From an uncultured Nitrospiraceae bacterium (GTDB taxonomy: Bacteria; Nitrospirota; Thermodesulfovibrionia; Thermodesulfovibrionales; Dissulfurispiraceae), in contig CAVSHF010000003.1 in NCBI GenBank assembly GCA_963727805.1, forward strand, positions 2,272,001 through 2,336,000: a stretch of 64,000 nt of DNA, given 5' to 3'. Under the pieces are notes generated by a model. It saw only the letters and a program-made list of their open reading frames with translations, was not told the origin of the DNA and searched no databases. The translations under genes and the position numbers were made by a program. Shown here one piece after another: positions 1,525 through 2,162 of the stretch; positions within the stretch are counted from its first letter, which is position 1; every line of letters begins with the position of its first letter.

Positions 1525-2162
1525 GTCGAGTAGGCCGGTGGAATCGCACCACCAGCCCCTCACAGATTCCGTACGTGAACCTCTCGATTCATACGGCTCG
1601 TGTCAATCATCAAGTTGAGTCTTTGCAGTCTCAACCATACACATTGAGCGATAGTTCCTCCTGGTCACCCAGTTGACTGGTACTCTTTGTGGATTGACCC
1701 ATCCCCTTCCCTCCACGGCTTATTATCACTGCTTCATCGGTACTATTGGACGGTCCGACCCCTTCACCTGCATCGATACTTTCCCCCTTCGTTTGCACTT
1801 ATAGGGTTTTCTCTTAGCATCAGATGAAGAGTTCCCGCGTTCCACACAGGAGCCTAGATCAGCTTCATGCCGCCTCTATGCCGGACGCCGTTCAGGCAGT
1901 AAACAGGTATCTCCTGAACTAATCCTGATGCAAAGTAAGAACATCAGTTTTGACGTCGTCCTTTTCCTTTCGACACCTCATCAGCGGTTCGCTTACGCTC
2001 ATCTCTCTGATCCATCCCTGACACGATCTAGTCGTGCCTTTTCCTTTAACGCTCACCACCGGAGCCTTTCGACTACAGCAGCTTAAGGTGGGTTGAAGCC
2101 TGCTCCTGCAAGCCGGCTTCGAGGGGCCAACCCTCATCTTCCTGTGCAGCCTCGTGGCGCAC
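1525..2162 (-). mobile_element. ORF-less group II intron (IIB, bacterial class D-like architecture)
   Basis: Minus strand starts GTGCG at 2162; domain V GAGCCGTATGAATCGAGAGGTTCACGTACGGAATC (1599-1565, AGC triad); domain VI ends CCTACTCGAC at 1525; no RT ORF in domain IV; EBS1/EBS2 can pair with the 5' exon. Confidence 0.9.

Follow-up and report, generated by a model that had tools for sequence, protein, structure and literature searches.

An ORF-less hybrid group II intron at ten intergenic sites of one genome, probably mobilised in trans

The window, the whole stretch of 64,000 nucleotides analysed here, comes from source genome G000. Between a convergent acetate-CoA ligase gene and the end of a gene for a 2911-aa protein with GH94/glucoamylase domains, it carries a 638-nt group II intron without an ORF (1525-2162, minus strand), which we call O1. 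The intron occupies this intergenic site in the same sense as the 2911-aa gene, and consensus scanning found no terminator-like site between the two, so that read-through would be a plausible source of precursor RNA. A sequence-only reading of this DNA had proposed a minus-strand element of 638 nt, and its limits hold: O1 starts with GTGCG at 2162 and ends with ...CTACTCGAC at 1525. Two covariance models match it above their Rfam gathering scores, RF01999 (group-II-D1D4-2) at 2135-2016 with 109.8 bits (gathering 36) and RF00029 at 1601-1525 with 45.4 bits (gathering 40). The whole intron folds with z = -3.6 against 20 shuffles and all six domains fold, including domains I-III, on whose folding the sequence-only reading had made itself depend. 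O1 has the hallmarks of a group II intron (GUGYG 5' end, AY 3' end, six-domain fold, domain V triad and bulged A in domain VI), and the pairings EBS1-IBS1, EBS2-IBS2 and EBS3-IBS3 together with an internal delta-delta' contact place it in subgroup IIB; further internal contacts are alpha-alpha' and that of gamma G407 with the last C. Over nt 14-466 the ribozyme is 71% identical to that of an S. meliloti intron whose IEP has 419 aa. The class D motif of IEPs is inapplicable to O1, because it has no IEP; the resident IEP introns that share its domain I carry the motif.

All parts of O1 lie on the minus strand. Domain I (D1; 1835-2157, intron nt 6-328) is 89-91% identical to the resident IEP intron. 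It contains alpha GCAGG (2105-2109), which pairs with alpha' CCTGT at 1907-1903; EBS2 GGAAAA (1962-1967); delta C and EBS1 (1932-1939), with the delta C at 1939, its best partner delta' G at 1977, and EBS1 TTACTTT at 1938-1932 inside CTGATG(T)/(G)CATCAG; and the EBS3 G at 1876. A GAAA-capped IC1 hairpin (2063-2074), which we take to be theta, forms a patch of ORF-less-family type within this otherwise IEP-intron-like domain. Domain II (1760-1831), with an 11-bp basal helix, is of ORF-less-family type. Domain III (1696-1755) is directly preceded by the gamma G at 1756 and contains a mismatch private to the window copy: an A at nt 433 (window 1730), which breaks a domain III pair. All four sequencing runs read G at this position, so the A is either a private mutation or an assembly error. 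Domain IV (DIV; 1602-1698) had been described as a short stem without an RT gene; the lack of an ORF stands, while the domain proves to be a 97-nt element of two arms, DIVa (about 1691-1639, with CAGGAGGA at 1663-1656) and a GCAA-capped hairpin of the GNRA type (1635-1614). Similarly, domain V (1565-1599) has the AGC triad expected of a canonical one and departs from it by one extra A in its basal 3' strand (35 nt), an A common to all ten copies of O1. In domain VI (1527-1562), the bulged A named earlier is found at 1531, 7 nt from the 3' end.

Both exon pairings of the sequence-only reading were borne out. EBS2 (1967-1962) forms six of six pairs with IBS2 TTTTCC (2171-2176), and EBS1 (1938-1932) joins IBS1 GAGGTGG of the 5' exon (2163-2169) by three Watson-Crick and four G-U pairs. 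To these we add EBS3, whose G pairs with IBS3, the C at +1 of the 3' exon (1524), a letter found at 10/10 sites. Together the three pairings score 12/14 at the window site, a value equalled by 93 of 7.79 million genome positions (1.2e-5). Ranked in the same way, nine of the ten O1 targets fall in the top 0.05% of genome positions and all ten in the top 0.74%. The target letters are correspondingly uniform: C-9 and C+1 at every site, and C-10, T-11, T-12, G-4, T-3 and A-1 at 9/10 each. Across the four intron types of the genome, the EBS3 letter G or A tracks a +1 C or T; EBS3 is A in the resident IEP introns and in the ORF-less intron O3, whose 3' exons begin with T. The +1 C of the O1 sites thus matches the EBS3 of O1 and not the A of the resident IEP intron I1, suggesting that the copies were placed by O1's own ribozyme. 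On the G-rich strand, where En-minus class D introns would be expected to insert, there are eight of the ten copies (p = 0.055), in a genome region set whose strand skew is itself weak.

A search of the genome returned ten full copies of O1 at ten unrelated sites, all of them intergenic by ORF inspection. Nine are identical and the window copy departs from them at 1 nt. Every copy runs precisely from GTGCG to CTCGAC; the flanks are unrelated and show no duplication. For 8/10 copies, a paralogous site that lacks the intron can be aligned through the junction. For the window junction itself, no intron-less allele was found among 68 family genomes; what matched in other genomes was either the end of the neighbouring gene (query 1-208) or a fragment of 31 nt, never the DNA adjoining the intron. 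Nor did any contig in four sequencing runs bridge the window site, although such a lack of coverage is no proof of absence. RF01999 has 14 matches in the genome: the ten copies of O1, two IEP introns (I1 and I2) and two further ORF-less introns (O2 and O3). RT-based annotation thus overlooks 12 of the 14 class D-type introns of this genome. The near-identity of the copies and the fit of all ten targets to EBS1, EBS2 and EBS3 point to recent spread by retrohoming, and we regard O1 as a real, recently mobile, non-autonomous intron of class D type. The earlier description of a live non-autonomous ribozyme is supported, as far as sequence comparison reaches, by the ten copies with 0-1 nt differences, the EBS/IBS-matching targets and the two class D IEP introns in the same genome; it had not extended to copy number, to a recombinant origin or to a wider ORF-less family.

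Seven of the ten O1 sites fall within a dispersed repeat, roughly 100 bp long, that forms four subfamilies (118 blocks, 0.23% of the genome); three, the window site among them, fall outside the four repeat profiles. Because the intron-free paralogues behind the profiles had been retrieved with these very flanks, this enrichment arises partly by construction. The 118 blocks are spread over contigs C3 and C5 of G000 (e.g. C3 770-800 kb and C5 8-63 kb), clustered in variable regions; their core is GATTTCCGGAAGAAA-like and their ends read GATGACTTT/TAAGTAG. O1 inserts into one of their strands and O3 into the opposite one. In appearance they resemble recombination sites; no convincing ORF that would make them gene remnants was found in the repeat.

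Contigs of the sequencing runs X1, X2 and X7 (two studies, with RNA as the source of one of the three runs) reach across the breakpoint described below, so the mosaic is no assembly artefact. Run X2 contains exact flank pieces of G000 and is not an independent host. The RNA run X7 holds intron pieces only and is not counted as expression, since DNA may be present in its library. No spliced-exon junction occurs in the contigs of the four runs. In X1, contig depth is about 31-33 on the intron and 4-5 on the flanks, a ratio that is no measure of copy number. One contig of X3 combines O1 with EBS1/EBS2 letters of I1 type; we set it aside as a fresh recombinant, as a collapsed assembly bubble explains it equally well.

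As to a source of protein, the sequence-only reading had called for an IEP-bearing intron elsewhere in the genome, and two of class D are present. I1 and I2 are 1835 nt each with two differences between them, and encode IEPs of 412 aa that match TIGR04416 and consist of RVT_1 and GIIM, with no other Pfam match and no endonuclease domain. Both IEPs carry the class D motif LX3AX3PXLF[V/A]HW (as given in the accessible text of PMC4615759), which is found in 0/4 of the other RTs (six RTs in the genome). The I2 protein reads ERYADD, and that of I1 (G000:C3:1126260-1128094) ECYADD, with Cys for Arg just before YADD, so the I1 IEP may be impaired. O1 shares about 90% of D1 and a GUCAAC...GGAGGA core of DIVa with both introns, and the letters upstream of its targets (T-16 G-15 A-14) resemble those of I2. 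From the IEP class, the D1 identity and the shared DIVa core, we infer action in trans: the likely helper of O1 is one of these two introns, a candidate identified by class and similarity only. The genome holds further introns. O3 (L004, G000:C3:690343-689720), 624 nt and ORF-less, goes with the I1 lineage from end to end as a simple relative of deletion type, and similar short forms occur in G010, G018 and G284. Another IEP intron at G000:C3:6831-about 9100 (minus strand) has a 500-aa frame, in which no HNH pattern was found, and is inserted in the same dispersed-repeat family. Within the window, a group II intron of another type at 57331-55165 (minus strand) encodes a 450-aa RT with FADD; RF02005 (D1D4-6) matches at 57220-56970 and RF00029 does not match at its gathering score. 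It has three genome copies of 99.4-99.7% identity.

The composition of O1 changes along its length. Its identity to I1 and to O2 is 91% and 67% in D1, and 53% and 83% in D2-3. In 40-nt windows, identity to I1 is 93-100% over nt 1-80 and 121-320, 65% at 81-120 and 40-68% after 321, whereas for O2 the values are 57-80% within D1 and 80-88% at nt 321-520. MaxChi reaches 94 at nt 327-332 (window 1831-1836), in the D1/D2 linker, with informative sites at 93:15 to the left and 9:62 to the right and 0/5000 permutations reaching it. The same breakpoint is obtained with each of four family members as second parent (93.5-96.9, 0/5000 permutations). Five presumed non-mosaic controls gave 1.3, 2.4, 5.6, 15.1 and 15.6; as two of these lie near 15, with 23/5000 permutations, small MaxChi values are meaningless. 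Trees of 18 rows, chosen from the 33 in the alignment by dropping mosaics and several rows that were near-redundant or divergent, join O1 with I1 in D1 (support 99/99) and place it within the ORF-less family in D2-3 (100/100), and the AU test rejects both O1+I1 in D2-3 (p 1e-69) and O1 within the family in D1 (p 0.037). The D1 of I1 agrees with its own D2-3 lineage and that of O1 does not, so O1 is the recipient. When the trees are enlarged to 44-45 rows, the partner of O1 in both D1 and D2 is L023, which comes from a genome of the same genus. The two therefore share the event: recombination predates their split, the ten-copy burst is much younger, and the sequence was donated by an intron related to the present IEP intron, not by that copy itself.

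Other introns are mosaic too. L023 and L048 break at the breakpoint of O1, and L053 has only D3-D4 of family type. L054 (G346:C3), an IEP-encoding class D intron, has domain II and the IC1 hairpin of ORF-less-family type and is the reciprocal direction of exchange. The IC1 hairpin (nt 89-100) stays family-like in O1, L023 and L054, and not in L048; a family-like hairpin would fit a theta contact with domain II.

The ORF-less family itself is widespread and sparse. In a scan of 145 loci with a DIV profile, which favours ORF-less forms by design (L119 of genome G953 is excluded from all counts), full or near-full matches running straight into domain V occur in 16 genomes or records: G000, G003, G010, G101, G324, G344, G656-G659, G1107, G1159, G1238, G1360, G1382 and a complete Caballeronia plasmid. 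In G1384 the copy is partly masked, and seven metagenome contigs, some of them redundant, also carry the family DIV (L040 is shortened by its contig end). The named hosts belong to Thermodesulfobacteriota, Bacillota and Pseudomonadota; four are MAG contigs and possibly mis-binned. Only 3/401 genomes of the phylum of G000 carry the family, the 351 genomes around G659 hold no full match besides the query's own genome, and viral contigs gave none. DIV appears to be maintained: across 13 sequences, 18/31 pairs change on both sides, more than in all 500 shuffles and all slid controls, and 93% of DIV cells pair, against at most 41% in the slid controls. Relatedness inflates the shuffle test and is preserved by the slide control. 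Sequence searches turned up no apparent ORF-bearing member: 0/20 IEP-bearing introns join the D3+DIVa clade of the family (support 89/87), and the one strong DIV match among these 20 loci is a nested family copy. On the D1 tree, no fewer than three changes of the family label on starred branches are required, so D1 has been exchanged more than once. A class D-like IEP (at least 50% identity) is present in six of nine family-bearing genomes checked and was not found in three, which are drafts or MAGs. In G101, G324, G657, G003 and the Caballeronia plasmid, the D1 of the family member is unlike that of the resident IEP intron; that a D1 swap tunes an intron to its local helper is thus a notion drawn from O1 alone. 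O2 (L001, G000:C3:2011708-2012346), the unswapped relative in G000, interrupts a 505-aa TnpB/Cas12f-like ORF (PF07282) just after the zinc-finger codons, and its ends are fixed by a 98%-identical intron-free allele at C3:306137-305838.

How might the hybrid have formed? Four records show family members cleanly nested inside class D-type introns: in L051 within domain II of an IEP intron whose own IEP is 86% identical, in L085 and L124 within D1 at about nt 110, and in L123 at the very start of domain II (L103, a tangled intron stack, is not counted). Deletion between the outer and inner D1 ends of a nest of the L051 or L123 type gives exactly the layout of O1, making such nests a plausible route to the hybrid, with RT template switching as an alternative. 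Head-to-tail arrays of ORF-less introns occur in L087 (Neochlamydia S13 plasmid, 671-2600), L124 and L053; the three Neochlamydia copies differ mainly in EBS1/EBS2.

Our main reading, which we hold with a probability of roughly 80%, is that O1 is an ORF-less IIB hybrid at ten intergenic sites, with D1 from a class D IEP-intron lineage and D2-D4 from an old ORF-less family, and that it likely retrohomes via a class D RT/maturase acting in trans. Read-through transcription would provide the precursor. A class D IEP would bind the retained DIVa and domain I and promote lariat splicing, and the lariat would reverse-splice into targets of the form TTCC-N-RAAGTAA|C. The IEP, having no endonuclease, would then copy the inserted intron, with priming probably at replication forks. 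The hybrid itself would have arisen once, in an ancestor of the host genus, plausibly when a nested pair lost the stretch from its outer to its inner domain I. A bolder extension is tentative and in our view rather unlikely as a whole: an old class D satellite lineage that never bore an ORF moves between phyla, often lands in class D introns and swaps whole domains at their junctions, and the D1 of the local lineage made O1 a better maturase client and drove the ten-copy burst, a SINE-like ribozyme life cycle. The link between swap and burst is a single comparison, ten copies of O1 and one of O2.

A plain origin by ORF deletion from an unsampled IEP intron, with the mosaic signal produced by uneven rates or by the history of the parent, is improbable. 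An IEP intron with a family-type D2 does exist (L054, whose D2 is 90-92% identical to that of O1), and the sample of IEP introns is small (20 rows). Moreover, a 12-nt word of the O1 DIV recurs near the end of the resident IEP ORF (8/2000 shuffles, post hoc); a view of the DIV hairpin as the remnant of an IEP 3' end could draw on this match and on a stem in I2, neither of which recurs in the other 15 IEP introns folded. Yet D3 of L054 is only 56% identical to that of O1, the D1 of I1 goes with its own D2-3 and that of O1 does not, and the ORF-less DIV, of fixed length and with compensatory changes, is common to introns whose D1 is only about 67% alike. Simple deletion is refuted for now.

That the protein came from another source is in our view unlikely; candidates would be the 450-aa RT intron with its three copies, the intron with the 500-aa RT, or a class D intron that has since disappeared or came in temporarily on a mobile element. 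The 450-aa RT intron has itself recently multiplied, the DIVa of O1 differs in sequence from that of I1, and related introns were mostly not mobilised by heterologous class D IEPs in the accessible results of PMC4615759. The other RTs, however, are without the class D motif and belong to introns of different ribozyme types, whereas O1 and I1/I2 share about 90% of D1 and the DIVa core, and the letters upstream of the O1 targets resemble those of I2. Copies made with no IEP at all, whether by protein-free reverse splicing with host polymerases or at the DNA level, by duplication or by recombination at the dispersed repeat, seem highly improbable. The family-bearing genome G344 (78% complete) has no RT match, seven O1 sites lie in repeats, and protein-free reverse splicing into DNA is reported in vitro for another intron in the part of that preprint available (bioRxiv 10.1101/2024.08.31.610620). 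Against this stand the exact ends, the unrelated flanks with no duplication and the three sites outside the repeat profiles. A stable DNA copy of an intron, moreover, requires RNA-templated synthesis.

Trans-mobilised ORF-less introns are known from Thermosynechococcus elongatus; new here are the recombinant build and the persistent ORF-less family. As far as the accessible text of PMC2882425 goes, the T. elongatus TeI3 introns are mobilised by the "driver" IEP of TeI4c and resemble O1 in being ORF-less IIB introns that outnumber IEP introns, mostly intergenic and with good EBS/IBS pairing; their remodelled DIV and the nesting of some of them in IEP introns recall O1 and its relatives. O1 shares with them several near-identical ORF-less copies at EBS-matching sites and an IEP intron in the same genome. 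TeI3, however, is CL/IIB1 and descended by ORF deletion from a resident IEP intron within one genome, whereas O1 is of class D type with D2-D4 from a family that is foreign to the resident IEP lineage (53% identity in D2-3, AU p 1e-69) and found in three named phyla. To the class D (IIB3) introns RmInt1, RmInt2 and Sr.md.I1 of Sinorhizobium, as covered by the accessible text of PMC4615759, O1 is linked by EBS1/2/3 recognition and a DIVa with a sequestered SD, and the resident candidate helpers by their En-minus IEP class with the C-terminal motif and, presumably, a partial interchangeability of IEPs; the counterpart of their lagging-strand-template bias is only suggestive in O1. Unlike O1, they encode their own 419-aa IEP, and that text describes no recombinant or ORF-less form. 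In Methanosarcina acetivorans, ORF-less introns home into related introns and copies recombine, as in the O1 family (Dai and Zimmerly 2003, via the accessible part of PMC4424553); recombination there deletes copies, while O1 is a new mobile hybrid with its break at a domain junction. A literature search mostly without subscription papers found neither a natural domain-swapped bacterial group II intron nor a cross-phylum ORF-less class D family; Simon et al. 2008 may list the family in part. SINEs and MITEs pair with autonomous LINEs and transposons. The likeness to O1 is that a non-autonomous lineage persists and exchanges modules with its helper; unlike them, the non-autonomous element here does the catalysis itself and bears the sites that pair with the target.

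Finally, we would like to place O1 in the wider biology of these introns. The 2015 review, in its accessible part, calls bacterial ORF-less introns rare and short-lived and leaves the conflict between RNA trees and IEP trees unexplained (PMC4424553). Here, an ORF-less lineage persists across three named phyla with its domain IV under selection, and the mosaics O1, L023, L048, L053 and L054 are cases of domain-wise recombination in nature, all within class D; such exchange would blur phylogenies that assume a single history. With O1, O2 and I2 in one genome, nature has set up an experiment on which RNA domains determine maturase specificity: O1 and O2 combine the same D2-D4 with two different D1s, and one is present in ten copies, the other in one.
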